Source of the DNA: Squalus acanthias
Lineage: Eukaryota
DNA length: 64,000 bases
Direction of reading: 5' to 3'
Assembly: GCA_030390025.1 (NCBI GenBank)
Contig: CM059432.1
Span: forward strand, 96,660,001-96,724,000
In this document: positions 6,077 to 49,063 of the stretch, in pieces
How positions within the stretch are numbered: position 1 is the stretch's first letter
Layout: every line of letters begins with the position of its first letter
Translations under genes and position numbers: made by a program
Notes under the pieces: model-generated
The model's database searches: none
What the model was told of the DNA's origin: nothing
What the model saw: the letters and a program-made list of their open reading frames with translations, nothing else

Positions 6077-6794
6077 TCAGTGATGTGATGACTTATGCAT
6101 GCACCATGGGAGGCTTTTTACTGGATGATTACATATAAGTCGGTGAGGAAAGGAACACTTCCAGGTAAAAAGGGCAGTCTGACCCCTACTATTTTTCAAG
6201 GATTCACTGGTCTCATTTTCACCATTAAGTCTACTTTTCCACACATCAGTGGCGAAGCAGAGTCAATGCCCCGTACTGACATGGCAAGAATGCCTTCACA
6301 TGGTACTACTTTCTCTTACAATAGCAGGACATGTGTGTCCTCCTGCCAGCCCCCTCAGCTACCTGCACATATGACAGAAAGATGTTAGGACCCGTCCTAC
6401 ATTAATCCTGCTCCAAGAAACAAAAATACAGGAGTATTCCCAATGGCAAACCTATTATGCCTTTTTTAGAAAGGTGAGAGAAGTTCGAGCTCCACAGCAG
6501 AACACACAAAGGTAAATGCTAAAGCAATTGCACAGAGTTAAAAAAAATAAGCAAAACTGATCGAGGATAAGGGAGATAATTATAACAGAGTGATTATTTG
6601 CAACGTATTTTTGACTATCTGCACATGCGCGCCCGTTTTGTACTGTGCATGCGCACGCGATCCGGTCGCACATGCGCAGTATCAAATGGTGCAGTGGCTG
6701 CGGCCTGCACTGCCACACTTTCCTCAGCTCCGTGCAGAGAAGGTCAATGGATCCGTTGGTGGCCGGGAGGGAGGCAGGAGAGCGGATCGGAACG

Positions 6795-6975
6795 AGAGGG
6801 AGGGAGGATCGGAGGGGGAGGGAGGGAGGATCAGAGGGGGAGGGAGGGAGGATCAGAGGGGGAGGGAGAGAGGATCGGAGGGGGAGGGAGAGGGGATCGG
6901 AGGGGGAGGGACAGAGGATCGGAAGGGGAGGGACAGAGGATCGAAGGGGGACGGAGGATCGAAGGGGGACGGAGG
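6795..6975 (+). repeat. G-rich ~21-bp minisatellite inside a transposon remnant
   Basis: About 8 copies of GAGGGGGAGGGAG(G/A)GAGGATC. Confidence 0.8.
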
Positions 6976-7399
6976 ACCTTAGAGAGAGGTGAGAAGATCA
7001 GGAACTCAGGTTGGGGAGGGAGAAGGTCAGGAGATCGGGGGGAAGGTCATGAAGTCGGGGAGAGAATGTCAGGAACTCGTTGGGGGAGCACGGTGAGAAC
7101 AGTGGGGGAGCTGTGGGGGAAGAACGTGATCCAGGTCTAAAGGGGGGGTGGGATGAGAGCAAGAACGTGATCCAGATAGGAAGATAGGCCTGGATCACGT
7201 TCTTCCACCCCCACCCCCTTTACACCTGTACCAGTTCTCCCTCTCCTCTCACCACCAGACCAGTGGTTCAAGAAGGTAGCTCACTACCATCCTCAAGGGC
7301 AACTAGCGATGGGCAATAAATAAATAATTTTTTTTTAAATGAGAGCCTATTTTGTGTTGATCCTACAACATGCATAACATTACATTCATGTGTTATTTG

Positions 7400-18700: not shown

Positions 18701-20056
18701 GGGCTGAATTTAATAGGGAAGGTGTGTTGGGGGCGGCGAGGGGGTGGCGGGGGGGTGTGTGTGGGGGGCTCCCAGGCAGTCGGGGAACCCGGGAGAATGG
18801 GTTTCCCACAGGACCTGTCGAATTTAACGGCAGGGTTTGATTTGCATGGGAAGCCTCTATTCCCCACCCGCAGCCAACCAGATTGAGAGGCTGGCCGGAA
18901 CCGGGCGGGCAGGCCGCACAGAGGAGGGAGGGATCGCGCAGGGACCGGGGGGTAGCCGGAGGAAGGAGGGATCGCACAGGGGCCGGGGGGCAGCTGGAGG
19001 AGGGAGGGATCGCGCAGGGGCCGGGGGACAGCCGGAGGAGGGAGGGATCGCACAGGGGCTGGGGGGCAGCCGGAGGAGGGAGGGATCGCACAGGGGCCGG
19101 GGGGCAGCCGGAGGAGGGAGGGATCGCACAGGGGCCGGGGGGCAGCCGGAGGAGGGAGGGATCGCGCAGGGGCCAGGGGGACAGCCGGAGGAGGGAGGGA
19201 TCGCACAGGGGCCAGGGGGGCAGCCGGAGGAGCAGGACGTGGGCCACGACCAGCGGGGGGGACTAAGGATCGGGGGGGGGGTGATGTGAAGAGGATCGGG
19301 GGCCGGGTGGCAGCTGGCAAAGGATCGGGGTGGGCTGGGGGTGAGGGGGGGGGCTGCGAGGACATTCGGGGACTGGGAGGAGCACGGGCGGGGTTGCAAA
19401 GAGGATTGGGGGTCGGGAGCAGCACGGAGGGGAGGGGGTGCCGGACGAGCGGCGGGAGGGGCATTGTGGGGGGGGATCGTAGGCCTGGGGGCTGGGAATT
19501 GTAGGCCTGGTGGGGTGGGGGAGGCCTCGTGAGGGGATTTGAGGCCTGGGGGGTATCGTACGCCTGGCACGGGGTTGACGGGAGGCCTTGTGGGGGTATC
19601 GGAAGCCTGGGTGGGGAGATCGTAGGATGGGGAGGGGGGATTGGAGGCCTGCGGGGGGTGAAATCGGAGGCCTGGGGGCATCAGAGGCCTCACGGGGGAG
19701 GTCTCTGATCGCGAGAGTTCGGTTAGGTAGGCACCCTGGATCCAGGCACTTACCTGCTGGATCCAGCAGTCCTCGCCTTGCATTAGCTGGCGGGTTTGAC
19801 GAGGCGTGCAAAACTCAACCAGTTGCAGTTAAAGACAAAATGTAGGTTAAAGCAGAGGCTTCCAAACTCATTATAATATTTAAATAGTCAGCCCGCCTCC
19901 TGGCAGCAGATTGGCTGCCCGCCCCCATCCGGCCCCATGCCCACCTCTGTTAAAACCGGAAGTGGGCAGGTTGGAGGGGGGTTCAGGTCGGGATTCCGAT
20001 TTTTAACACTTTAACTACCCCCATGCCCCATCCATTTTTAGGTTAAAATTCTCCCC
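18701..20056. mobile_element. Harbinger-type MITE with internal ~39-bp tandem array
   Basis: GGGCTGAATTTAA / TTAAAATTCTCCCC with AGA TSD. About 8 copies of CAGCCGGAGGAGGGAGGGATCGC(A/G)CAGGGGCCGGGGGG at ~18925-19230. Confidence 0.8.
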
Positions 20057-20319: not shown

Positions 20320-22980
20320 ATTCAACACTCCTGCCCCCATAATAACAGGGAGGCGGGAAGTGTGCGGGTTGGGGGTGGCGGGAGGTTTAACGGCTGGGAA
20401 ACCCGAAAGTACCGAACCTAACGACAGGCCCTGATTAAAAAAAAATTCCCTTTCCCGGTTGCAGCCAGCCACCTATCTTCAGCAGGGGAGCAGTCACCGG
20501 GAGAGGGTCAGAGAGATCGCGGGGGGAGTCAGACAGATAGCGGGGGGGGTGAGAGTCAGATAGATTGCGGGGGGGGTGAGTCGGATAGATCGCGGGGCGG
20601 GGGAGTCGGACAGATTGCGGTGGGGGGGAGAGTCGGATAGATCGCGGGGGGTGGGGAGAGTCGGACAGATCGCGCGGGGGGGGAGTTGGATAGATTGCGG
20701 GGGGGGGGGGAGTCGGACAGATCGCGGGGGGGGGGAGAGTCGGATAGATCGCGGGGGGGGAGTTGGATAGATTGCAGGGGGGGGGGGAGTCGGATAGATC
20801 GCGGGGGGGGGAGTCGGATAGATCGCGGGGGGGAGTCGGATAGATCGCGGGGGGGGGGGAGAGTCGGATAGATCGCGGGGGGGGGGAGAGTTGGATAGAT
20901 TGCGGGGGGGGGAGAGTTGGATAGATCGCGGGGGGGAGTCGGATAGATCGCGGGGGGGAGAGTTGGATAGATCGCGGGGGGGGGAGTCGGATAGATCGTG
21001 GGGGGGAGAGTCGGATAGATCGCGGGGGGGGAGTCGGATAGATCGCGGGGAGGAGTCGGATAGATCGCGGGGGGTGGGAGTCGGATAGATTGCGGGGGGG
21101 GGGGAAGAGTCGGACAGATCGCGGGGGGGGGAGTCGGATAGATCGCGGGGGGGGAGAGTCGGATAGATCGCGGGGAGGGGAGTCGGATAGATCGCGGGGG
21201 GGAGAGTCGGATAGATCGCGGGGGGGGAGAGTCGGATAGATCGCGGGGGGGGAGAGTCGGATAGATCGCGGGGGGGGGAGTCGGATAGATCGCGGGGGGG
21301 GAGCGTCGGATAGATCGCGGGGGGGGAGTCGGATAGATCGCGGGGGGGGGGAGTCGGATAGATCGCGGGGGGGGAGTCGGATAGATTGCGGGGGGGGGAG
21401 AGTCGGACAGATCGCGGGGGGGAGTCGGATAGATCGCGGGGGGGGAGAGTCGGATAGATCGCGGGGGGGGGAGTCGGATAGATCGCGGGGGGGGAGAGTC
21501 GGATAGATCGCGGGGGGGGAGTCGGATAGATCGCGGGGGGGGAGTCGGATAGATCGCGGGGGGGGAGAGTCGGACAGATCGCGGGGGGAGAGTCGGATAG
21601 ATCGCGGGGGGGGAGAGTCGGATAGATCGTGGGGGGGGAGTCGGATAGATCGTGGGGGGGGGAGAGTCGGATAGATCGCGGGGGGGGGAGTCGGATAGAT
21701 CGCGGGGGGGGAGTCGGATAGATCGCGGGGGGTGGGAGTCGGATAGATTGCGGGGGGGGGGGAGAGTCGGACAGATCGCGGGGGGGAGTCGGATAGATCG
21801 CGGGGGGGGAGAGTCGGATAGATCGCGGGGGGGGGAGTCGGACAGATCGCGGGGGGGAGAGTCGGATAGATTGCGGGGGGGGAGTCGGATAGATTGCGGG
21901 GGGGGGAGTCGGATAGATTGCGGGGGGGGGTGAGTTGGATAGATCGCGGGGGGGGGAGTCGGACAGATCGCGGGGGGTGGGAGTCGGACAGATTGCGGGG
22001 GGGGGGAGAGTCGGACAGATCGCGGGGGGGGGAGTCGGACAGATCGCGGGGGGGAGAGTCGGATAGATTGCGGGGGGGGGAGTCGGATAGATCGCGGGGG
22101 GGGAGTCGGATAGATTGCGGGGGGGGTGAGTTGGATAGATCGCGGGGGGGGAGTCGGACAGATCGCGGGGGGTGGGAGTCGGACAGATCGCGGGGGGGAG
22201 AGTCGGATAGATTGCGGGGGGGGGAGTCGGATAGATCGCGGGGGGGGAGTCGGATAGATTGCGGGGGGGGTGAGTTGGATAGATCGCGGGGGGGGAGTCG
22301 GATAGATCGCGGGGGGGGGAGTCGGATAGATTGCGGGGGGGGTGAGTTGGATAGATCGCGGGGGTGGGAGTCGGACAGATTGCGGGGGGGGTGGAGTCGG
22401 ATAGATTGCGGGGGGGGGGAGTCGGATAGATCGCGGGGGGGGGGGAGTCGGACAGATTGCAGGGGGGAGTCGGACAGATTGCGGGGGGGGAGTCGGACAG
22501 ATTGCGGGGGGTGGGGTGGATTCGGATAGATCGCGGGGGGAGGAGAGTCGGACAGATTGCGGGGGGGGGGAGAGTCGGACAGATTGCGGGCGGGGGGGTG
22601 GGTGTTCGGGGAGTCGGATCGCTCGCAGGGTTTTACAGGTTAGTTTGTTGGTCCGGTGGTGAAACACTCTTGCTCCTCCTGGCCCACAAGCAGTGCTGTA
22701 AAGGCACCTTATGGATCCGGCCCTTCACGCCTTCCTTCAGCTGCCGGGTTTCCCGAAGTCCAGGAAACCCGGTCTGCAGGTGTTAAAAATAAAATTTACA
22801 TTAAAATGGAGACTTGCGGCCTTCTTAAAATATTATACGGTCCGTCCCTGCGTCCTGACAGCGGTTGGTCGCCCGCCCCCCAACCTGTCTCCATTTAAAC
22901 CCGAAGTGGGCGGGTTGGGGTCAGGTTGCCAATTTTAAAATTTTAACCACCCACCCGCCCTAGGGGTTAAAATTACCCCC
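20320..22980. mobile_element. Harbinger-type MITE expanded by a minisatellite
   Basis: Right end GGGGTTAAAATTACCCCC and the shared CTCCTCCTGGCCCACAAGCAGTGCTGTAAAGGCAC motif. Left boundary approximate. Confidence 0.65.
20505..22620 (+). repeat. ~2.1-kb G-rich minisatellite, unit (GA)GAGTCGGA(T/C)AGAT(C/T)GC followed by a G run (mostly 6-12)
   Basis: Directly visible; roughly 80 units of 24-29 bp with variable G-run length. Confidence 0.97.
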
Positions 22981-36223: not shown

Positions 36224-37570
36224 TGTAGGGGGTGGTGGTTTGTGTCAGCTTCACCTCTGACTTCTGAGCGGTTCGAATCGCTCCCACTCCCTTGGTTCTA
36301 GACCTTGGACTTATTTGGGGGTTGTGACAAAAAGTGCAGCAGCCAACTGGTTTTGATGCAAGAACTTTGATCTTTATTCAAGAAAGTAAAACACAACACA
36401 AACACTCTTAACACTCTAAAAGTGGGGAACACTTCGGTACAAACGAGGGAAATAACATTAGAAGAATACTTCACCCCTCCCAATCCCACTTCACTAGCTA
36501 AGTTGGACTCTGGAGAACCAGGGATAATGCTCACCAAACGAATCCTTGACAGTTGAGATGGTTCGCGGTTTCGGGGTTCGCTGGATTGGATTTATCGGGT
36601 GAGTACCCACTTTTCTTTGGTTAGAGGTAGGGTTTAGAGTCCTTTTAAGTAAAAAGTTTTGTAAGGCCCTTGTTGCCGCGAGGTGTCCGATGGTCACTGA
36701 GGCGGTCGCTCTGGTCTCTTCTTGCGTGTCGGCCTGCTTCTGGAGCTGCTGGCCTTCTTTGTTGAACTTCTTTCTGTTGCACCCTTGCCTTGTTGAACTG
36801 TCTTCTTCAGAGCTGTGGAACTGCCTTCTGCCGGACTGCTTGCTGAACTCCCTGCTGCTTGCTGTAACTGTGTAACTGCTCCACCCTTGAACTTGTAGGG
36901 AACTTGTTGTAACTGCTGAACTGTGTACCTGTACTGGAGAACTCGAACTTGAACTGTTGAGAACGGGTCTTTAATTATAGCCATTGAAGCTTCCTTATCT
37001 GCATGCCAAATCAAATCCCGGTCATTGTAAGATTTTGGAGGGCTCGTTAACAGTAACTGGTTTGTAAATGTGTGAAGTGGTTCTGGGATGGCCCCCATCC
37101 TGTCGATTTGCCACTTAATCGGAGTTTGATCGTTCTTATGTTTTGGGTTTTCTTGGCTGGGCCTATGATTTCTATGGAGTAGGCCGATGTAATTTGTTTT
37201 ATGCATGTCTTAATGGGCTCTGTAGCTTGGGGTGGAGACCGTTTTCCTCGGGTTTATTGTTAGGATGCTAATGTCTGATAGGGGCCGATTTACACTCCCA
37301 GCGAGATCATGCGGTTCCCCACAGTTCCCATTAGCTCCAATACCCAAACGGCTTTTACAGAGGTTGAACCCACCTTCCTTCACAGCCTTTTCTCCCTGAC
37401 AAGCCCAGACATGTTTTAAAAATACCTAATCTTGGTTTTTGCTCAAAATGTCCTTCGGTTAGGCCCAATGCACTTCACCACCCTGTAATAGCTAGAAAAG
37501 AGTCCAAAGTCTTTTTCCTTAGGGTTTGTCTTCGAGTTTTGGGGAATCTGTGAATTTTGAGAATCTTACA
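36224..37570 (-). repeat. 3' LTR (~1347 bp)
   Basis: TGTAAGATTCTCAAAATTC ... CCCCCTACA on minus; AATAAA near 36374-36379. Confidence 0.88.
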
Positions 37571-38347
37571 GTCCCCCCTCTGATACTTTACTAGCTAGAG
37601 TATCATACTGGGTGAGCAAAATTCTTGATCCTCGAGAGCCAACCTTCCCCTGTAGTTTACCTATCTAAGACCCAAAACATACATTTCCCTTTAGGTGTAG
37701 TGTTCAGATGCAGACACAGTTAAGAATTCAGTTACATTCGTATCCAAGCACAGAGGGGGTCCAACACCCCTGCACCACTTGGAAAAATATAGTACATACA
37801 TAGTAATAATAATAATATACGATCACAAAAACTTTATTCATTTTAATAAAAACAATTAAGGCTCGCCCTAAACCTGGCCATAGGCTTTATTGTCTCTGGC
37901 TTGACAGGTGATCGAGTCTCGAAAAATTTAAACTTACTTAAGTAAAAATAATTCACTAAAACTAAAACTACCAAAACCGTAAAACACACCTAAATACATT
38001 AAACTCTGTACATACGCCGCCTGTCTCCAGACGGCCAGGCTAATTCCTGTATGGCCTCTGCCTTGGGCAGCTTCTGAGCAGCCTGTACGCCTGAGCATAA
38101 GGTGGCCTGTACCGCAGGACCCGGAGAGTCCTTCTTAAAACAACTGAGGTTTTCCCTGAATCCCTGACAATCCGGGGAGTGTCCCCTCCTGTGCTACAGC
38201 ACACCACCCCCTTTGGTGTGGCTGCTGAGTCCCTGTCCTGTCCTGTGGGTTCCTCGCAGTCTGAGGCTGCAGGCTGGGGATCCCTCTCTTAGAATGACCC
38301 CTGACTTTGGGTATTCTCTTTCGGTTTGCAGCCCTTGCTGGGCTGAA

Positions 38348-39184
38348 CTATTGAAACTCTGGTGACCACGGTAGTTTTGGCTGTGGTGTGCGAGGAGACC
38401 TTCTCAGGACTCCGGCTACCGGGGGTGCATCCGAGTCCCACATAATTGGTGGGGTGGCCCCTCCTGTGACACAGCACACTGCCCCTACCGGTGCGGTCTG
38501 TGAGTCTGCCACAGCTGCTGGCTGAGGATCTCTACCTTTAGGGCGGTTCACCCTTGCTGGCCATTCCCCTTTCTCGGGTTTGTACAGTTTACACTGGTCA
38601 ATCTCCCACTTGTGGGTTCTCTGGAGTTCTAACAGCAGTTTTTTCTGATGCTGGCTCCCAAGGTTACTGGCTGCTTGCCAGTGAATCTGTTTTAATATCT
38701 CGTCCGCTGCCCTGAATGGACCTTCTAGGGACTCCCCATTCTCTCTCTTTACCAGGACGGCCTTAAGGACGGGATCCTGGGCTTGGACCTGCTTTAAGTC
38801 CGGGGGCAAAGCTACCCCCTGTGTGCCTCCCTTGTCCCGGATTGCTGACTGCCAGACCTGCTTTATAGGGATCCCAGAACTTTCCTTCCCTGGCCCCCTG
38901 CTTGGCTGACTTGTCGGCCTTTTGGTTACCCTCCCACGTAGGTATGGAGGGATCCTAAATCTATGTCCAAAGGTTTGGACAATGCCCCAGCCTGCTCATT
39001 CCCTGTGAACCCCATTAGGCTAAATGGGACCTGGTTAGACCTGGGTGAATTGGTCGGGTCTTCCGAATGGACCACCGGTGCTGGAAGCTCCGGTGTCCAC
39101 CAAATATCTCACCTGCACCGTCTCCATCCCCATCTTACCATCGTATTCCGGGGAACACAGGTAGACAGGCTGCGCTGGTTCTAG
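38348..39184 (-). pseudogene. pol remnant: protease N-half fused to RNase H C-terminus and pre-integrase linker
   Basis: VRYLVDTGASST (DTG at ~39089-39097), frameshift, ..GFTGNEQ.., then WEGNQKADKSAKQGA (~38890-38935), then DLKQVQAQDPVL. No RT or integrase core visible. Confidence 0.8.
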
Positions 39185-40981
39185 TCATAAGTCTGCGTTG
39201 AGTGGGGCAAATGGGGTTAGAGCACCAGTGGCGGTGGCTACTTTCCCTGGGCCGTTTACTAGAGCTCGGATCGCAGCCACGACCGAGTCTAACGTGGGGG
39301 AAGAGGTCGGTGCTTCGGTGCTTGGGGCAGGAGCTGGGGAGTTCTTCCCTATGTTATCCTTCCACGGATTCCTACAGTCTTTTCTCCAATGCCCACTCTT
39401 CCCGCACCCGAAGCAGTTACGCTTCGTGTCGAAAGGGTTACCCCCTTCCTGGTGCCACTCTTTCTTTTTACTAGGCCTTAATTCTGGTACCTTTCCCTTA
39501 GGTGGGTGCTCCTCTGTCCCTCTACTGTTCCGGTAAGCCAGGGTCAGTTGTCTGACCACTGTCTCCTCGGTGACCCGGGGGTCTTTAGGGTCAAACCACA
39601 GCTCAGCCTTGGCCCTGATCCATGGCAAGCTGTTTGCCACTAGGCTTCGGAGCCAGTGGGCCAGCTCATCCTGATTCAGGTGAGCCCGGTCGAGAACTCC
39701 ATTACAGGCACTCCTGTACACAGGCCACAGTCGGTCTGGCTGGGTTGTCTTCTCCACCCGGGAGAAGGGACTGCCATCATTCATTCCCATGGCCTCCAGG
39801 ACTCCCTCCTGGATAGCGGCGTATCCATCCTGCCCTCTTTTACTCTCTGCGGAGAGGGACTGGTAGATTTTGCTATCCAGGGAGAACAGGAGCATTTTTG
39901 CCATCTCGGCATCATCGCAGTCGTTGATGCCCGCTGCCTGTTCCACTTCCATGAAGTGGACCGAGGGGTCCCCTTCTTGAGTGAGCTTACTCAGGTGGCT
40001 TACCATAGCCCTAAGCTGTTGAGTGCCGTGGGGAGCCACGAATTGGCTTTCAAGGGGTCCTTGACTCCCACCACCTCTGGGCGGGCCAAACCTTTGCTGC
40101 CGGACCGGGCACATCGGCCCTGGCTCCGACCTTTCCTGCATTGGTTCGCCCACCCCTCCCTGCTGCCAAACCGAGTTAAAACCCGGCGCCACAGGTGGTG
40201 GTGGTGTGCACTCTCTGCCGGCTTCACAAATCGTCCATCCCTCCTGCTGCCAAACCGGGTCGTTCCCCGGTGCCACAGGTGGCGTCAGAACAGTTTCCCC
40301 TTGCACTTCCAGGTCTACCCGGGCCGCACCCAGGCTTAGTAGGCATACCATGCCTTTCGCCCTGGACAGAGCAAGGTTCAAACTCTCAATTTGTTTCTGG
40401 CAGGGGCTGTGATCTCCTGCCTCATACACCCTAGTGCCCGCTATCTTGTAAGCTGCCTGGACGTCTCTCAACCTCTCCTCCTGCTCTCTTACTTGTTTGG
40501 CCAGGCGGGCGTTCTCTTCCTGCAACACCAGTTCACTGGTTTTTGCTTCGGTGACCTGACACTGAAAATATTCCTGCCTGTTTCTATGTGTTTCCACTAA
40601 CTGCATCTTTTCCTGATTTCGGGTGGTTAATTCTGCTAATAATGCCTCCCCTGCTAGAGCTCTTGCGTGAGACATTTGAGCTGATTCCCGCAGCTCTGCT
40701 TTAAGTGCCTCAACACGTTTGTCTAAAAGCTGGATCTGTCGCAGGGAGCATACCAACCAGATGGCTTTTTCCACAGATTTCTTGTGGTCCTTGCTCTCAG
40801 TCCACTTGGCTGCAGTGTCCATTGGACGCTCAGCGCGCAACAGACTGAGTACCCACTTCTTAGTTATATTCACTTTCCTGAACACATAAGAGGAAATCCT
40901 CGCTTCCATCTTAGTTCTCTCCTCAAAAACAGTGTCCACTGCATCACATCCCTTTTGCCAAGCTCCTGCCATGGTTGCCAT
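39185..40981 (-). CDS. gag: Gag, ~598 aa from the ATG at 40981
   Basis: Intact ORF (track: 620 aa from an upstream start inside the LTR). N-terminal coiled-coil-like region, capsid-like middle, CCHC knuckle CFGCGKSGHWRKDC. Confidence 0.9.
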   Translation of the reverse strand: MATMAGAWQKGCDAVDTVFEERTKMEARISSYVFRKVNITKKWVLSLLRAERPMDTAAKWTESKDHKKSVEKAIWLVCSLRQIQLLDKRVEALKAELRESAQMSHARALAGEALLAELTTRNQEKMQLVETHRNRQEYFQCQVTEAKTSELVLQEENARLAKQVREQEERLRDVQAAYKIAGTRVYEAGDHSPCQKQIESLNLALSRAKGMVCLLSLGAARVDLEVQGETVLTPPVAPGNDPVWQQEGWTICEAGRECTPPPPVAPGFNSVWQQGGVGEPMQERSEPGPMCPVRQQRFGPPRGGGSQGPLESQFVAPHGTQQLRAMVSHLSKLTQEGDPSVHFMEVEQAAGINDCDDAEMAKMLLFSLDSKIYQSLSAESKRGQDGYAAIQEGVLEAMGMNDGSPFSRVEKTTQPDRLWPVYRSACNGVLDRAHLNQDELAHWLRSLVANSLPWIRAKAELWFDPKDPRVTEETVVRQLTLAYRNSRGTEEHPPKGKVPELRPSKKKEWHQEGGNPFDTKRNCFGCGKSGHWRKDCRNPWKDNIGKNSPAPAPSTEAPTSSPTLDSVVAAIRALVNGPGKVATATGALTPFAPLNADL

Positions 40982-40983
40982 TA

Positions 40984-42472
40984 TGTACGGGGTGGTGTTT
41001 TGTGTCAGCTTCACCTCTGACTTCTGAGCAGTTCGAATCGCTCCCACTCCCTTGGTTCTAGACCTTGGACCTATTTGGGGGTTGTGACAAAAAGTGCAGC
41101 AGACAACTGGTTTTGATGCAAGAACTTTAATCTTTATTCAAGAAAGTAAAACACAACACAAACACTCTTAACACTCTAAAAGTGGGGAACACTTTGGTAC
41201 AAGCGAGGGAAATAACATTTGGAGAATACTTCACCCCTCCCAATCCCACTTTACTAGCTAAGTTGAACTCTGGAGAACCAGGGATAATACTCACCAGAAT
41301 CCTTGACAGTTAGGTTAGTTCGCGGTTTTGGGGTTCACTCTGTATGTCGTTTGGTGTCTGGCGTACCCCATACGCGATAGAGGACTTCAACTGCGTATCT
41401 AGTCAGTCTTCGTGAATCCGCTGATGCGGTAGGGTGCGTATTGGATCTATCAGGTGAGTACCCACTTTTCTTTAGTTTAGAAGTAGGGTTTAGAGTTTTT
41501 TAAGGAAAATCTTACCCAGGGGTAAGTCAGGAGTAGATTGTAGAGTGGAAACTTTGCGGTTCTTCGGTTTTCTTCGAGTTGGTTTTCTTTGGTCGCGGTG
41601 GCCCAAATATTGATACTTGGTGTTTGGTTGGTTGTTTCGTGAGGGCCTTATTGCCGCGAGGTGTCCGGTGGTCACTGAGGCGGTCGTTCTGGTTTTCTTC
41701 TCGTGTCAGCCTACTTTGTTGGATGGTCTGGCCTTCGAGCTGTCGACCTCCTGGCTGGACACGGAACGCTGAACGGTGTTGGTTTAGAACTGTGTTGCGG
41801 AGAATGCCTCCGTTGATGTCTTCTTGTTCTTCCTTCCTCTTCTTCTTTTTCAGGTTGAGAACGGGCCTTCAATTATACCCATTGAAGCTCCCTTATTTGC
41901 GCGCCAAATCAGGTCTCGGTCATTGTAAGATTTTGGAGGGCTCGTCAACAGTAACTGGTTTGTAAATGTGTGAAGTGGTTTCGGGATAGCTCCATCCTGT
42001 CAATCTGTTGTTTAATTGTAGTTGAATTATCCTCATGTTTTGGGGTTTCTTGACTGGGTCTAGGATTTCTATAGAGTAAGCTGAAGTTATCTGTTTTATG
42101 CATGTCTGTAATGGGTTCTGTAAATTTGGGTGGAGACTGTTTTTCCTCAGGTATATTGTTGGGATGTTAATGTCTGCTAGGGGCTGATTTAATTCCCAGC
42201 GAGGTCATGCGGTTCCCCAGACAGTTCCCATTAACTCCAATATCCAAACTGTCTTTACAGAGGTTGAGCCCACCTTCCTTTACAACCTTTTCTCCCTTAC
42301 AAGTCCAGACATGTCTTTTAAAATACCAAATCTTGGTTTTTGCACTAAAATGTCCTTTGGTTAAGCCCAATGCATTTCACCACCTGTAATAGTTAGAAAA
42401 AGAGTCCAAAGCCTTTTTCCTCAGGGTTTGTCTTCAAGTTTTGGGGGATCTGTGAATTTTGAGAATCTTGCA
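40984..42472 (-). repeat. 5' LTR (~1489 bp)
   Basis: TGCAAGATTCTCAAAATTC ... CCCCGTACA on minus; homologous to 36224-37570. Confidence 0.88.
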
Positions 42473-44527: not shown

Positions 44528-46206
44528 ATGGAAGGACCAAGCACAATTCACATGATTAAGAGAGCTCAGAATTTCACTGACGGTGACATCAGCACACTCC
44601 TCAATGAGGTTGTGGCGAAGTGCCCTGTGGATCATTGGGAATGAGAAGTCCAGGGCGCCGCGCAAAGGACAGATGACAGCTTGGACATAAGTTGCCCAGG
44701 CTGTCAGCGCGAACTCCACCATTCCACGGACAGCGGAACAAAACCGCAAAAAATTTAATGATTTGATGCGATCTGCCAAGGTTTGTACAGTTATTAGAAA
44801 TGTCAACTGTAGCATTTGTTTAAATTTAACTGAACTATTTTTAAAAATGTCATATATGCATGGATGTTCTAAAGTGACTTCATTATCCAGGCATCTGAGC
44901 TTTTCATGAAATTTTATGGCTTTGGGGTTAGCTCCGGGTCATCCATTGTCCTCTTATCTTTACTCCACAGCTTTGAGTTCTGAAATTTCAAATAGTGAAA
45001 AAAAACCTGTCTCCAAAGCAACTTGTGGTCCTGTCTCAAAGGCAGGTGGGTGGTCTCTGCAGAAAAAACTGCAGTTTCATGACGTTTCATATTTTCTGTT
45101 TTCATTTTAGAGTAAAATTGTTAACAACGCCAGAGAACATGCATTGACAGGCGGTGATGTTGTCACGCTAAGGGAGTTATCGGAGCAAGAGGAAAGGGTC
45201 GCGCACTTGCTTGGAATCAGTAGTGGCTGTTCAGTGCCTGCTGCCCAATCAGACATTGGGGTAAGGAAAGGTGAGTTGGTTTGCCCAGCTATATGTTTAA
45301 AACTGTTTGATGTGTGTTGAATATCAGCTTCTGTGATGTGGCAGATCGTGCTTCACCTTCATAAGTGTTTACTGTTTCCTTCCCACAGGTGGACAGCTTC
45401 CTTCTCACACACGGGATGAACTGTGCGTTGAGTCTGCGGCTGCAGAGGACATTGGGGAAGGGGTTACAGATGCAGTGGGAGCAGTAAGTGAGGTGGTGGA
45501 GGAGGAGGATGAATTTATGCTGTGTCAGCTAGTGGGAGGGGAGGGTATGGACCCTGGGTGGCTGTACAACACCTCTCCATCTCCTGACCCCTCTGGCTCT
45601 GTACCAGGCACAGATGACTGTTGTTCCACAGCCAGACACCAACCTGATACTGCAGAGCAGGTGGGAGAAGCAGCAAGACGTTCAATGCAATGGAATGACA
45701 TAGAAGCTCAGGTGCAACAGATTGAAGGGTTGAGGCAAGAGATGTGTACTCTTCATAGGAAGAAAGTTGACTCTCTTGCCTCTATCAGACAGGCAATTAA
45801 TGATGTTACTATGGCACTTGGTCATATAAACGAGTCTCTCGTTCAACTCTTGCAGTTGCTTAAAACAGTTTCTGCTGCCATTACTTTGACTCCCGCAGAA
45901 CCGCCCTTGCCTGCTCCCAGCGCAGACACAGTGCAGGCCCACGAGACAGCAGCTCCACCAATTCTGATGCAAGCAAACGTTGCCTTTCAGCAGCAGCAGC
46001 AGCAACCCTGTCACGAGGCAATTGCTGTAGGTCAAGAGATGGCACACAGGGGCCTTTCAATTGGCAGCAGAGGGCTCCGGTCACGGGGAAGGGAAAGTGC
46101 AGGAGACAGTAGGTTGTCACCTTTTGCACAATCCACCTCCTTTGACCCTCAGGCACAGATGCGAGGGGGCAAATCGTTCAATTCTTTAATGTTTCGTTTT
46201 ATTTAA
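44528..46206 (+). pseudogene. Harbinger Myb/SANT (ORF1) gene, 3 exons: 44528-44780, 45111-45270, 45389-46206
   Basis: KRAQNFTDGDISTLLNEV..VAQAVSANSTIPRTAEQNRKKFNDL. GT-AG introns join exons 2 and 3 in frame with the 243-aa ORF. Exon 1 has one frameshift and one TAA. Confidence 0.85.
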
Positions 46207-46642: not shown

Positions 46643-47776
46643 TCACCTCGTGAAGGTGTTGGCTACTAGCAGTTCCCGAGCAGCCTTGCTTTCGGCAGCA
46701 CTTGGCTCCTCCGTGTCAGGCCTGGCCTCAGGTGCATTATCATCGTCCATGTCCTCCATTTCAGCAGGGAGCTCCTCTGCAGTGTTAAGGGTCAGTCCTT
46801 CCCGCAGGGCAAAGTTATGCAAAGCACAACAGGTCACCACAATCCTTGACATTTTAAGAGGAGAATACTGCAAGGTCCCCCCCCCGACCTGTCCAGGCAC
46901 CGGATGCGTGATTTCAGAACCCTGATTGTCCTCTCCACCACTTGCCGTGTGGACACGTGTGCCTGGTTGTATCTCTCCTGAGCCTCATTATTGGTCTTGC
47001 GGTAGGGAATCATCAGCCATGGCCTTAGCAGGTAGCCCTTGTCGCCCAATAGCCATGCGGATCCTGGAGGCAATGTGCTGAGGGTGCCATATAGGTCCGA
47101 GGACAAAGGAGTCATGAGCACTTCCCCGGTGATCTGCATTCACGTTTAGGATCCTGAGTTGCGCATCACAGACTATCATGACATTCAATGAATGAAACCC
47201 CTTCCTGTTGATGTATGCCACAGGTGCATCCAGTGGTGCCTTCAATGCAACATGGGTTCCATCGACAGACCCAATCACTTTGGGGAATCCAGCAATGCTA
47301 TAAAATGCAAGGGCCCGCTCCTTTTGATGCTGAGTGGACAAGTCAAAGTCTATGAACTCTTAAGCCCTACGGAAAATGGCATCTGTGACCTGGTGAATGC
47401 AGGCCAACGCAGCACTCTGGGAGATGTTCGAAATGCCTGCCCGAAATGACTCACTTGCAAAGAAGTTCAATGCTGTGGTTACCTTCATGTTCACTGACAA
47501 GGCAGTGCGGGTCTTCGAGCGTGTTTGAAGGTCGTCCTTTAACATGTCACATAGTCGGCCGATTGCCTCTTTACTGAAGTGCAGCCTCCTCCCACACAAC
47601 TCCTCCGACAGCATCTCAAATGACAGCCTCCCCCTGTACACGCTCTGGGGTGGGTAGTAGTTCCTCCTGATCAGGAGACGGTGATGGTTCCTCAGTCTTC
47701 TTTGTTGTTCCCTGGCTTTTTTGATTCTATGATCCACAATCGCACCGAGGATCAGGGCAACATCATCAAAGGGCAT
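46643..47776 (-). pseudogene. HARBI1-type Harbinger transposase, frameshifted
   Basis: [35 protein letters not shown] and [14 protein letters not shown] spread over four ORF fragments. Confidence 0.92.
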
Positions 47777-49063
47777 GTTTCTCCCTCACAGGCTTCTTCT
47801 AAACAGATGAAGTACTTGCAAGGAAAAAATGGAAAGAGTTCTAAAAGTAATTTTAATAAAGTGAGTGGCTAGAAATTCACGTCGGGCTATGGTGGGAAAC
47901 GTGCAGTATCGGATTGGGCACACGTCATACCCGCCTGATGAATATCACGGCTCGAGATGATTTTCTAAGAACTTTTACATTTTCACAAAATCATACATAC
48001 AATTTTTAAAGGGCATAGAAAAGTTAACATATAACTAATTCATACATTCTGGCATAATTATTTAAAACATTAGTAAATGTTAAATAATTCATTTTTAAAC
48101 AGTCATTTTCACATTTAAAAAATGAAATCTAATTCAATAGAATGCTTACCTTGCACACAGCGAGAGTTGCTCTTTAAATTAACTACACTCCTCAAAACAA
48201 GATCCAAAACCAATAAAGTATTTAACAAATTAAAGATGTTAAAACTTACCTCAGGCTTTCTGCAAAGAACTTTGCTCACTTTCACAGTTAAAAATATTCC
48301 GTTTCCAAGCCCCCTGCTGAAAAAGGTCTTCTTCCTGCAGCTCCTTCTGGTAGAATGCAGGCTGTACACCTGCTTTTACTATTCGTAGCTGTTTCGGACG
48401 TACCTGAACTCAAGCAGTTGAGAAATCATCGGAAATATGAGCCGGTAGGGCTACCTTGCCTGCGCATGCGGTTGATCTGTCAAGAAGATTCTTGACAGAT
48501 CGGAAATACCGGTTTTCAGTGCATGCGCTTTGCATGTCTGAAACCGGCATTTCCGATGTCCCTACGGGTGTGTACACAACCTGTACACACCCGTAGGCAT
48601 CGGAAAATATGGCCCAATGAAACCTTAATGTATCAAATTCTGAAGCATAACCTCAATTGGCAGGTTACTGCTCAAAGGTGCAGGTCTGAATATGAAATTA
48701 AACATTCAATAATTTTTGAACATAAATCTAATAGCCCATTTGGTCTTCTTCCAAAGATTTCCTTTTAGATCAAAGAATTACTTTTTTCAAGTTATTTATA
48801 TTCATTAAATCTCTCCTGGCTGCTGTAATGAAGTTTTTCTGACTAAAATGTTTAAATCTCCCAGTATGTTTGTAAAGCTACAAGGCAGAGAAAATGAAGG
48901 CACTCCATGCATAAAGTCATTAATAACAAATACTTTTCTGTTAAATGGTAAGTGAGGAAAATGTCCAATCTAGTTATGCTTTGAGAAATCAGTTTTATTT
49001 TCATAAATTCAAGATACACTTTATTTGTCTAATGCACGGCTCCTTTCTTAAACTGGTTACTTA

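Follow-up and report, generated by a model that had tools for sequence, protein, structure and literature searches.

How does a retrovirus-like element obtain its Pol proteins when gag ends at a stop codon and protease coding follows in the same reading frame? This question is raised by a 6.2-kb long terminal repeat (LTR) element on the minus strand of a 64,000-nucleotide stretch of the Squalus acanthias genome (assembly GCA_030390025.1, contig CM059432.1, positions 96,660,001 to 96,724,000; hereafter the window), in which gag closes with TGA followed directly by CTAG. We propose that Gag-Pol of the family to which this element belongs, a group of retrovirus-like LTR elements probably carried by sharks and rays, is made by programmed type II (UGA-CUA) readthrough of the alphavirus type, and on comparison of the available sequences we put the probability of this reading at about 0.82. 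A reading of the letters alone (the sequence-only reading) had already suggested that the family makes Gag-Pol by UGA readthrough, and this suggestion is supported by homologous Gags that end in register, by a TGA-CT that is unvaried in the best 40 of 81 substitution rows, and by the shared frame of gag and protease.

Under the proposed mechanism, most ribosomes would terminate at the TGA and release Gag, and the CUAG context and a predicted stem-loop would help a few per cent of them to decode the UGA with a near-cognate amino acid. The latter ribosomes would continue into protease, reverse transcriptase (RT), RNase H and integrase, yielding a high ratio of Gag to Gag-Pol. Readthrough in animal viruses is typically 2-15% (PMC13517186; here and below, published sources are cited from the portions available to us), and extended 3' stems can stimulate it up to 10-fold (Firth et al. 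2011, PMC3159437). The heptamer UGACUAG alone gives at least about 1.3% readthrough in human genes (2026 review), in agreement with the earlier description of UGA-CUAG as a leaky context.

The copy in the window (36224-42472) cannot make Pol. Its protease is frameshifted, RT and most of RNase H are gone and the core of integrase is deleted. Because the copy is dead for Pol, readthrough in it would yield only Gag plus 50 residues, i.e. the stop position and 49 open codons.

The gag-protease junction

The junction lies on the minus strand, which had been left unstated in the sequence-only reading, and reads GAC TTA (39193-39188), TGA (39187-39185) and CTAG (39184-39181). Past the TGA, the Gag frame reads LEPAQPVYLC...VRYLVDTGASST, including the protease active-site motif DTG, and the claim of an in-frame protease behind a Gag UGA-CUAG was thus borne out. 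The stretch up to the active site is free of stops, as had been claimed, but its length is corrected from about 28 codons to 29 between the TGA and the catalytic Asp codon (39097-39095). Frame 0 remains open for 49 codons beyond the TGA. Two marks of a type II signal are present, namely UGA followed by CUA or CGG (here TGA CTA G at 39187-39181) and downstream coding in the same frame (here the protease DTG in frame 0). The possibility that pol might sit in a different frame from gag, which had been raised as an objection to readthrough, did not materialize. Such a junction sequence is rare in its surroundings: among the 2337 TGA triplets on both strands of the 64-kb window, 25 are followed by CTA and four (0.17%) by CTAG.

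A different kind of recoding, either selenocysteine insertion or a frameshift pair, might also operate at a stop codon of this kind, UGA being the selenocysteine codon. However, we found no slippery heptamer in 39340-39080, the protease continues in frame 0, and the CUA context suits near-cognate readthrough, such that, with no search aimed at a SECIS element, we consider this the least probable of the explanations discussed here.

Gag termination in relatives

Three homologous Gags, P0001, P0002 and P0003, are 47, 41 and 39% identical to the window Gag and terminate in the same alignment columns. These three are cluster representatives; when the members of their clusters were added to the count of C-termini, all seven Gags with an intact C-terminus were found to end 20-21 residues past a G[KQ][VI]A motif (20 in the window Gag), and an eighth, P0152, is truncated mid-protein. 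The named homologs come from skate (41%), catshark and horn shark, with a distant one in Xenopus, a spread that points to a cartilaginous fish as host. RefSeq annotates several near-intact Gags of the family (P0002, P0153 and P0154; XP entries) as expressed uncharacterised genes of a skate, a hint that the family was recently active or is transcribed.

At the nucleotide level, we aligned 858 contigs of at least 80% likeness to positions 39040-39330 (239, 458, 11 and 150 contigs from four of the 21 listed runs, representing four organisms and four studies) and called variants, of which the best 40 of 81 substitution rows are considered throughout. None of these 40 rows places a substitution at TGA-CT (39183-39187) in any of the four organisms, or in the 25 nt at 39154-39178. 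The closest downstream changes among them are synonymous and fall at 39182 (CTA>CTG, with 29, 2.8, 6 and 12% of depth in the four runs) and 39179, and the codon before the stop (TTA) varies in relatives. Loose contig ends cluster at 39187-39188 in all four runs, and also near 39151-39155; the former cluster suggests that diverged Gag ends lose likeness to the window copy right at the stop. The sequence-only reading had allowed for a sense codon at this place in relatives, and none was seen among either the intact Gags, all in register, or the best 40 rows from the contigs. These comparisons indicate that the stop of gag, the TGA at 39187-39185, was inherited.

A private origin of the TGA, by nonsense mutation of one continuous gag-pol open reading frame (ORF), would fit the age and damage of the copy, with LTRs 88.5% identical over 1161 aligned nt. 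A single gag-pol ORF is also annotated in 10 of the 24 consensus elements of the lokiretroviruses, a radiation described as the sister lineage of all retroviruses (PMC7947760). Both the seven C-termini in register and the TGA unchanged in the best 40 rows of the four organisms argue against such a mutation, as does, if only as a weak negative, the lack of any longer protein spanning the junction (with the stop read as X) among 259 candidates. This explanation is already largely refuted, and we hold it to be very improbable.

It might also be that the subfamily is Gag-only and non-autonomous, with UGA-CUAG persisting as a relic of an ancestor that was read through. The window copy does combine a near-whole gag with a ruined pol, and Gag-only relatives of lokiretroviruses are known (zebrafish Bik-1). 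Moreover, no Pol homolog was found among the 259 candidates and no homolog of the integrase remnant among 118, although both negatives are weak evidence. On the other hand, relatives retain the sequence past the stop closely, and the contigs of many of them differ from the window copy at its protease frame break, which suggests that the break is not family-wide. Even a Gag-only subfamily would concede readthrough in its ancestor. We regard this scenario as unlikely, if less so than a private mutation, and favor readthrough in the family itself.

Searches for relatives elsewhere were negative. The Gag profile found no related DNA in viral contigs or prokaryote genomes, metagenome contigs scanned with a distant-family profile yielded no relative, and a pattern of the post-stop sequence had no match in metagenome or viral contigs.

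A predicted stem-loop downstream of the stop

The roughly 150 nt of RNA past the stop, which the sequence-only reading had singled out for folding, gave a weak result (161 nt, z -1.7), and a longer window exposed a long-range stem. The predicted stem-loop of about 190 nt begins at +13 from the U of the stop, and its 5' arm would pair with sequence about 135 nt further on. In type II signals a conserved extended 3' stem-loop starts some 9-16 nt from the stop, and the stem-loop at +13 is a candidate for one. The region 39178-38985 folds at -86.6 kcal/mol (z -4.13, 0/200 shuffles), and the 200-nt window starting at 39185 ranks second of 107 in the element. Across 12,785 windows of the 64 kb, the best partner of the 5' arm is the 3' arm at 39014-38984; two of 500 shuffled downstream regions pair with the 5' arm equally well, the arm ends having been picked after seeing the fold. 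Among the 12 listed downstream variants, seven are unpaired, two break inner pairs and three retain a pair, and these three include both listed variants of the basal stem, which keep their pairing as G-U.

A possible stem about 85-115 nt downstream had been proposed earlier. The stem at 39099-39068 is indeed predicted, with most pairs at a probability of 0.8-1.0 and a z of -3.3 in a window picked post hoc, but 5 of 336 windows of 46 nt in the element reach an equally strong fold. It begins about 90 nt past the stop, with a 3' arm that crosses the break in the protease frame. The stem holds as a predicted fold and is the tip of the larger stem-loop; the likely stimulator would be the larger predicted stem-loop at +13. 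Two other candidates, both missing from the pair lists, were dropped: a short hairpin at +13 to +33 (probability 0.03) and a helix to the VQVRY codons (probability 0). The strongest 200-nt fold of the element lies elsewhere, in capsid coding at 39995-39796 on the minus strand (z -5.75, 20 shuffles), and is possibly a packaging or dimerisation signal.

Several observations weigh against readthrough or against the proposed stimulator. No intact pol of the family was found, and the tie to lokiretroviruses is by motif likeness only. The homologous proteins reveal the position of the stop, not which stop codon is used there. The five unvaried bases at TGA-CT are unremarkable alone (P 0.38) and were read with 41 weaker rows left outside the best 40, and the 25-nt invariant stretch has a P of 0.006 if named in advance but of 0.25 if treated as the longest of all gaps. 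Overlapping unitigs inflate the depth peak at 39150-39189, which should not be read as a copy number. At the structural level, the two variants that break pairs do so in the inner stem, and the element as a whole is structure-rich, with 12 of 107 windows below a z of -3 and the best one inside gag. The best 25-nt arm merely ties a gag segment among 3060, and an arm cut exactly from the invariant stretch ranks 236th of 3060. Finally, the aligned stretch (39040-39330) excludes the 3' arm, so that the variants bear on no covariation between the arms.

Junctions in lokiretroviruses

The RNase H end of the window element looked lokiretrovirus-like, and we therefore examined the published lokiretrovirus supplement (Dataset S1 of PMC7947760; Wang and Han 2021), counting frames by eye. 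Besides the 10 elements annotated with a single gag-pol ORF, 14 of the 24 have a separate pol, and in seven of these 14 an in-frame TGA-CTA precedes pol. The sequence is TGA CTAG in Ofa, Cne, Pyo and Sau and TGA CTAA in Bsp, Dcl and Lro. The annotated Gag stops at that TGA in six of the seven, Cne being without an annotated gag, and the Bsp consensus carries a later frame break. Five of the seven seem, by eye, to carry a hairpin whose start lies at about +13 to +23. At the matching place Tfu has an ambiguous residue followed by Leu-Ser, and Aro, Lch and Ape start at or just before pol. No other stop context was seen among the junctions inspected by eye, with Bpe, Lca and Rca outside this inspection. 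We set aside 13 of the 17 TGACTAG places in the supplement, which by eye are not in-frame gag-pol junctions (the motif in Loki-Lch is off frame). The one viral match (L001) to a degenerate pattern of the lokiretrovirus junction was likewise rejected, being out of frame within a long ORF of unrelated sequence and attributable to chance.

In the published annotation, pol starts from downstream TTG, CTG or ATG codons (PMC7947760). The accessible main text of that paper has no match for readthrough, stop codon or frameshift, and its Fig. S2 may mark these stops.

The window element resembles lokiretroviruses in the coiled coil before the capsid, in how its RNase H ends and its integrase starts, both judged by eye, and in the TGA-CTA junction, which is present in seven of the 24 consensus elements and followed soon after the stop by a V-Y-hydrophobic motif in five. 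In some lokiretroviruses the coiled coil before the capsid is SMC-like, and the coiled coil of the window Gag fits by its predicted helix. There are also differences. A CCHC knuckle is present in the window Gag, and the capsid motif that its homologs carry did not turn up in the lokiretrovirus data set. Lokiretrovirus env is related to fusion proteins of paramyxoviruses and pneumoviruses, whereas the window element has no env. Of the lokiretrovirus trait of a tether plus an added retrovirus-type RNase H, the only candidate remnant is a 30-residue end that by eye resembles lokiretrovirus RNase H ends, and, because the element lacks RT, the tree that defines lokiretroviruses (RT sister to retroviruses) cannot be made for it. 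Unlike the window family, lokiretroviruses have not been reported from cartilaginous fish in the portions of the source available; the supplement row 'Chondrichthyes 3 0' (PMC7947760) is taken as three genomes screened with none positive. The apparent likeness is thus one of motifs judged by eye.

Pol might alternatively be made from its own spliced RNA or from its own start codon, in the manner of foamy viruses, with the TGA acting as an ordinary terminator. Judged by the splice-site consensus, the sequence at 39220-39181 includes, shortly upstream of the stop, a CTAAC that resembles a branch point (39220-39216), a stretch rich in pyrimidines and a CAG (39195-39193), and the last two bases of CTAG are themselves AG. 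Spliced pol would need neither a common gag-pol frame nor a retained TGA-CTA, however, and up to 29% of depth carries the CTG variant, in which CTAG loses its AG. With respect to an own start, in-frame ATGs lie upstream of DTG at 39133 and 39127, and the RNase H of lokiretroviruses groups with that of foamy viruses, but by eye no in-frame ATG occurs between the stop and the active site in Loki-Ofa, Cne, Pyo or Sau, and the authors themselves started pol at a downstream TTG (PMC7947760). Among the alternatives to readthrough we give this one the most weight, while still considering it improbable.

Whether the lokiretrovirus junctions and the readthrough proposed for the window family form one picture is more doubtful. 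UGA-CUA with a 3' stem-loop may be an overlooked and widespread route to Gag-Pol across lokiretroviruses, with the window element as a cartilaginous-fish branch that converged on a Sindbis-type stem, but we offer this only tentatively and would sooner expect it to fail. If true, readthrough may have been among the early strategies near the base of the retrovirus tree, with repeated switches to and from single-ORF expression.

Comparison with known readthrough systems

The nsP3-nsP4 junction of alphaviruses (Beier-Grimm type II; PMC3159437, PMC13517186) combines UGA-CUA with a short spacer and a long-loop extended stem, as predicted here. In Sindbis virus, UGA CUA is followed by a stem-loop at +16 that spans 177 nt (PMC13517186 Table 1), compared with +13 and about 190 nt predicted for the window element, and the ONNV sequence GAG UUA UGA CUA GAC compares with GAC UUA UGA CUA GAA in the window. 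The alphavirus case concerns the replicase of an RNA virus, whereas the window case concerns the gag-pol junction of an LTR retroelement with a predicted structure and putative readthrough.

Among retroelements, close counterparts include the fission-yeast Ty3/gypsy elements Tj1, Tcry1 and Tosmo1-3, in which, as in the window element, gag and pol are separated by a TGA in frame with CTA or CTG behind it, and Tj1 transposition needs the stop (PMC4600332; bioRxiv 2022.12.06.519325). Readthrough of UGA-CUAG in a retroelement, as first proposed for the window, is therefore supported but not unprecedented, since UGA-CUA/CUG junctions have been described in Tj1 and Tosmo. These, however, are chromoviruses of fungi in which a GAA codon ahead of the stop is conserved, whereas the window element has a variable TTA there, a vertebrate host and a pol remnant that looks retrovirus-type. 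The GAA-TGA-CT octamer of Tj1 and Tosmo is not matched by the window junction, and the chromodomain found at the C-terminus of their integrases had no Pfam match on the decayed integrase remnant.

Gamma- and epsilonretroviruses (MoMLV, WDSV), SSSV, ZFERV, RMEV and XtERV-S have one in-frame stop between knuckle and DTG, as does the window element. The contexts reported for those retroviruses are UAGGGA (with a pseudoknot), UAGGAU, UAGGGC, UGAAGA, UGACGA and UGAAGU, none of them UGACUA; for XtERV-S the available passages give the TGA and no context. The gammaretrovirus type III signal (UAG-G plus an H-type pseudoknot at +12) is not matched by the UGA-C of the window stop. The foamy-like ERVs of fish (FLERVs; PMC5210030, PMC8278194) differ as well, since their Gag lacks a Cys-His box and their pol is started independently in another frame, whereas the window element has a CCHC knuckle and a same-frame protease. 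In retroviruses, whether Gag and Pol are balanced by UAG readthrough, frameshift or spliced pol is a trait of the genus.

AQP4 is a mammalian UGA-CUAG readthrough gene. OPRL1 and MDH1 carry the identical heptamer UGACUAG, but as cellular C-terminal extensions, not for control of polyprotein ratios.

The mechanism itself is known from alphaviruses and fission-yeast Tj1; its use by vertebrate retrovirus-like elements would be new, judging from the literature searched. Neither UGA-CUA readthrough in such elements nor any mention of the lokiretrovirus TGA-CTA gag-pol junctions was found in that literature, with subscription papers and Repbase/Dfam notes outside the search, and the accessible parts of the 2026 review list no UGA-CUA context among retroviruses and do not mention lokiretroviruses or sharks. 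If the proposed readthrough is true, a vertebrate retrovirus-like lineage employs a signal of alphaviruses and cellular genes, and the annotated starts of seven published lokiretrovirus pol genes lie downstream of where these genes probably begin. The ancestral mode of Gag-Pol expression near the retrovirus root would become testable, and natural UGA-CUAG plus long-stem cassettes from cartilaginous fish would join the small set of studied signals.

Other features of the element and the window

The features of the element are collected in Table 1.

Table 1. Positions in the window of the parts of the LTR element and of its predicted readthrough signal.
Feature	Position	Strand	Basis or remark
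5' LTR, TG...CA, about 1.49 kb	40984..42472	-	88.5% identity to 3' LTR
Primer-binding-site-like stretch, begins TGG, 3 nt past LTR, overlaps gag start	40963..40980	-	sequence
gag, 598 aa	39188..40981	-	predicted long coiled coil at the N-terminus, then capsid-like helical domain and a single CCHC knuckle
TGA stop closing gag	39185..39187	-	position kept in homologs
CTAG 3' context; CTG variant in minority of relatives	39181..39184	-	sequence and relatives' contigs
Protease, N-terminal part in Gag frame, broken just past motif	39077..39184	-	weak Pfam gag-asp_proteas match, E 0.2
5' arm of predicted extended stem-loop, +13 to +39	39149..39175	-	overlaps variant-free 39154-39178
Apical hairpin (earlier-proposed stem), spans DTG codons and the frameshift of the window copy	39068..39099	-	folding
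3' arm of predicted extended stem-loop, +174 to about +204, in protease coding	38984..39014	-	outside contig-aligned stretch
Remaining protease-like sequence in another frame, LMGFTG motif	38929..39076	-	translation
Remnant resembling C-terminal end of retrovirus-type RNase H (GNQKADKSAKQGAREGKFW)	38865..38954	-	by-eye likeness to lokiretrovirus RNase H ends
Integrase remnant, domain start and end, core deleted	38351..38869	-	ESM Atlas lead Integrase_H2C2, score 0.91
Polypurine tract	37572..37581	-	sequence
3' LTR, TG...CA, about 1.35 kb	36224..37570	-	LTR-LTR alignment

The CCHC knuckle of Gag lies at aa 522-537, its coiled coil corresponds to a predicted helix at aa 68-184 (pLDDT about 64-84), and alignment to the homologs shows a 9-residue gap in the capsid region. 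The structure model of Gag is a weak one, with a mean pLDDT of 56. It had no Foldseek match at an E of 0.001 or better, and the weak rows are capsid domains of PEG10, Ty1, MLV and Arc. A PDB profile search with Gag matched mainly zinc knuckles. The scraps of protease and RNase H had no useful PDB match, and the RNase H end of about 30 residues had no Pfam match either. We take the LMGFTG of the remaining protease-like sequence to be a flap-like motif. No env was found in the only about 780 nt between the integrase remnant and the 3' LTR, where the longest open piece has 82 codons, and loss of env from this deleted copy is possible.

The gag ATG lies at the primer-binding-site-like stretch (40984-40963, minus strand), 3 nt past the 5' LTR, so that there is no leader; three homologous Gags likewise start with MAT. 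The primer-binding-site-like stretch may resemble the 3' end of tRNA-Arg. Internal duplications occur in gag (53 nt at 81%, 40146-40282) and across the end of the integrase remnant (75 nt at 73%, 38158-38506).

No target-site duplication was found at the flanks of the element, and TAAT follows both LTRs. An inverted copy at 33056-34522 matches both flanks at 65-72%, and because of this match the element seems to have inserted within another repeat, which we assume to be of Harbinger type. Elsewhere in the window, a broken transposase on the minus strand (46643-47785) with a GSVDGTHV motif faces a plus-strand ORF (45337-46206); we take these to be a PIF/Harbinger-like transposase and its Myb-like partner. 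G-rich tandem arrays are found at 20489-22323, 18883-19224 and 6748-6989, with units of 23-28, 38 and 22 nt, respectively.

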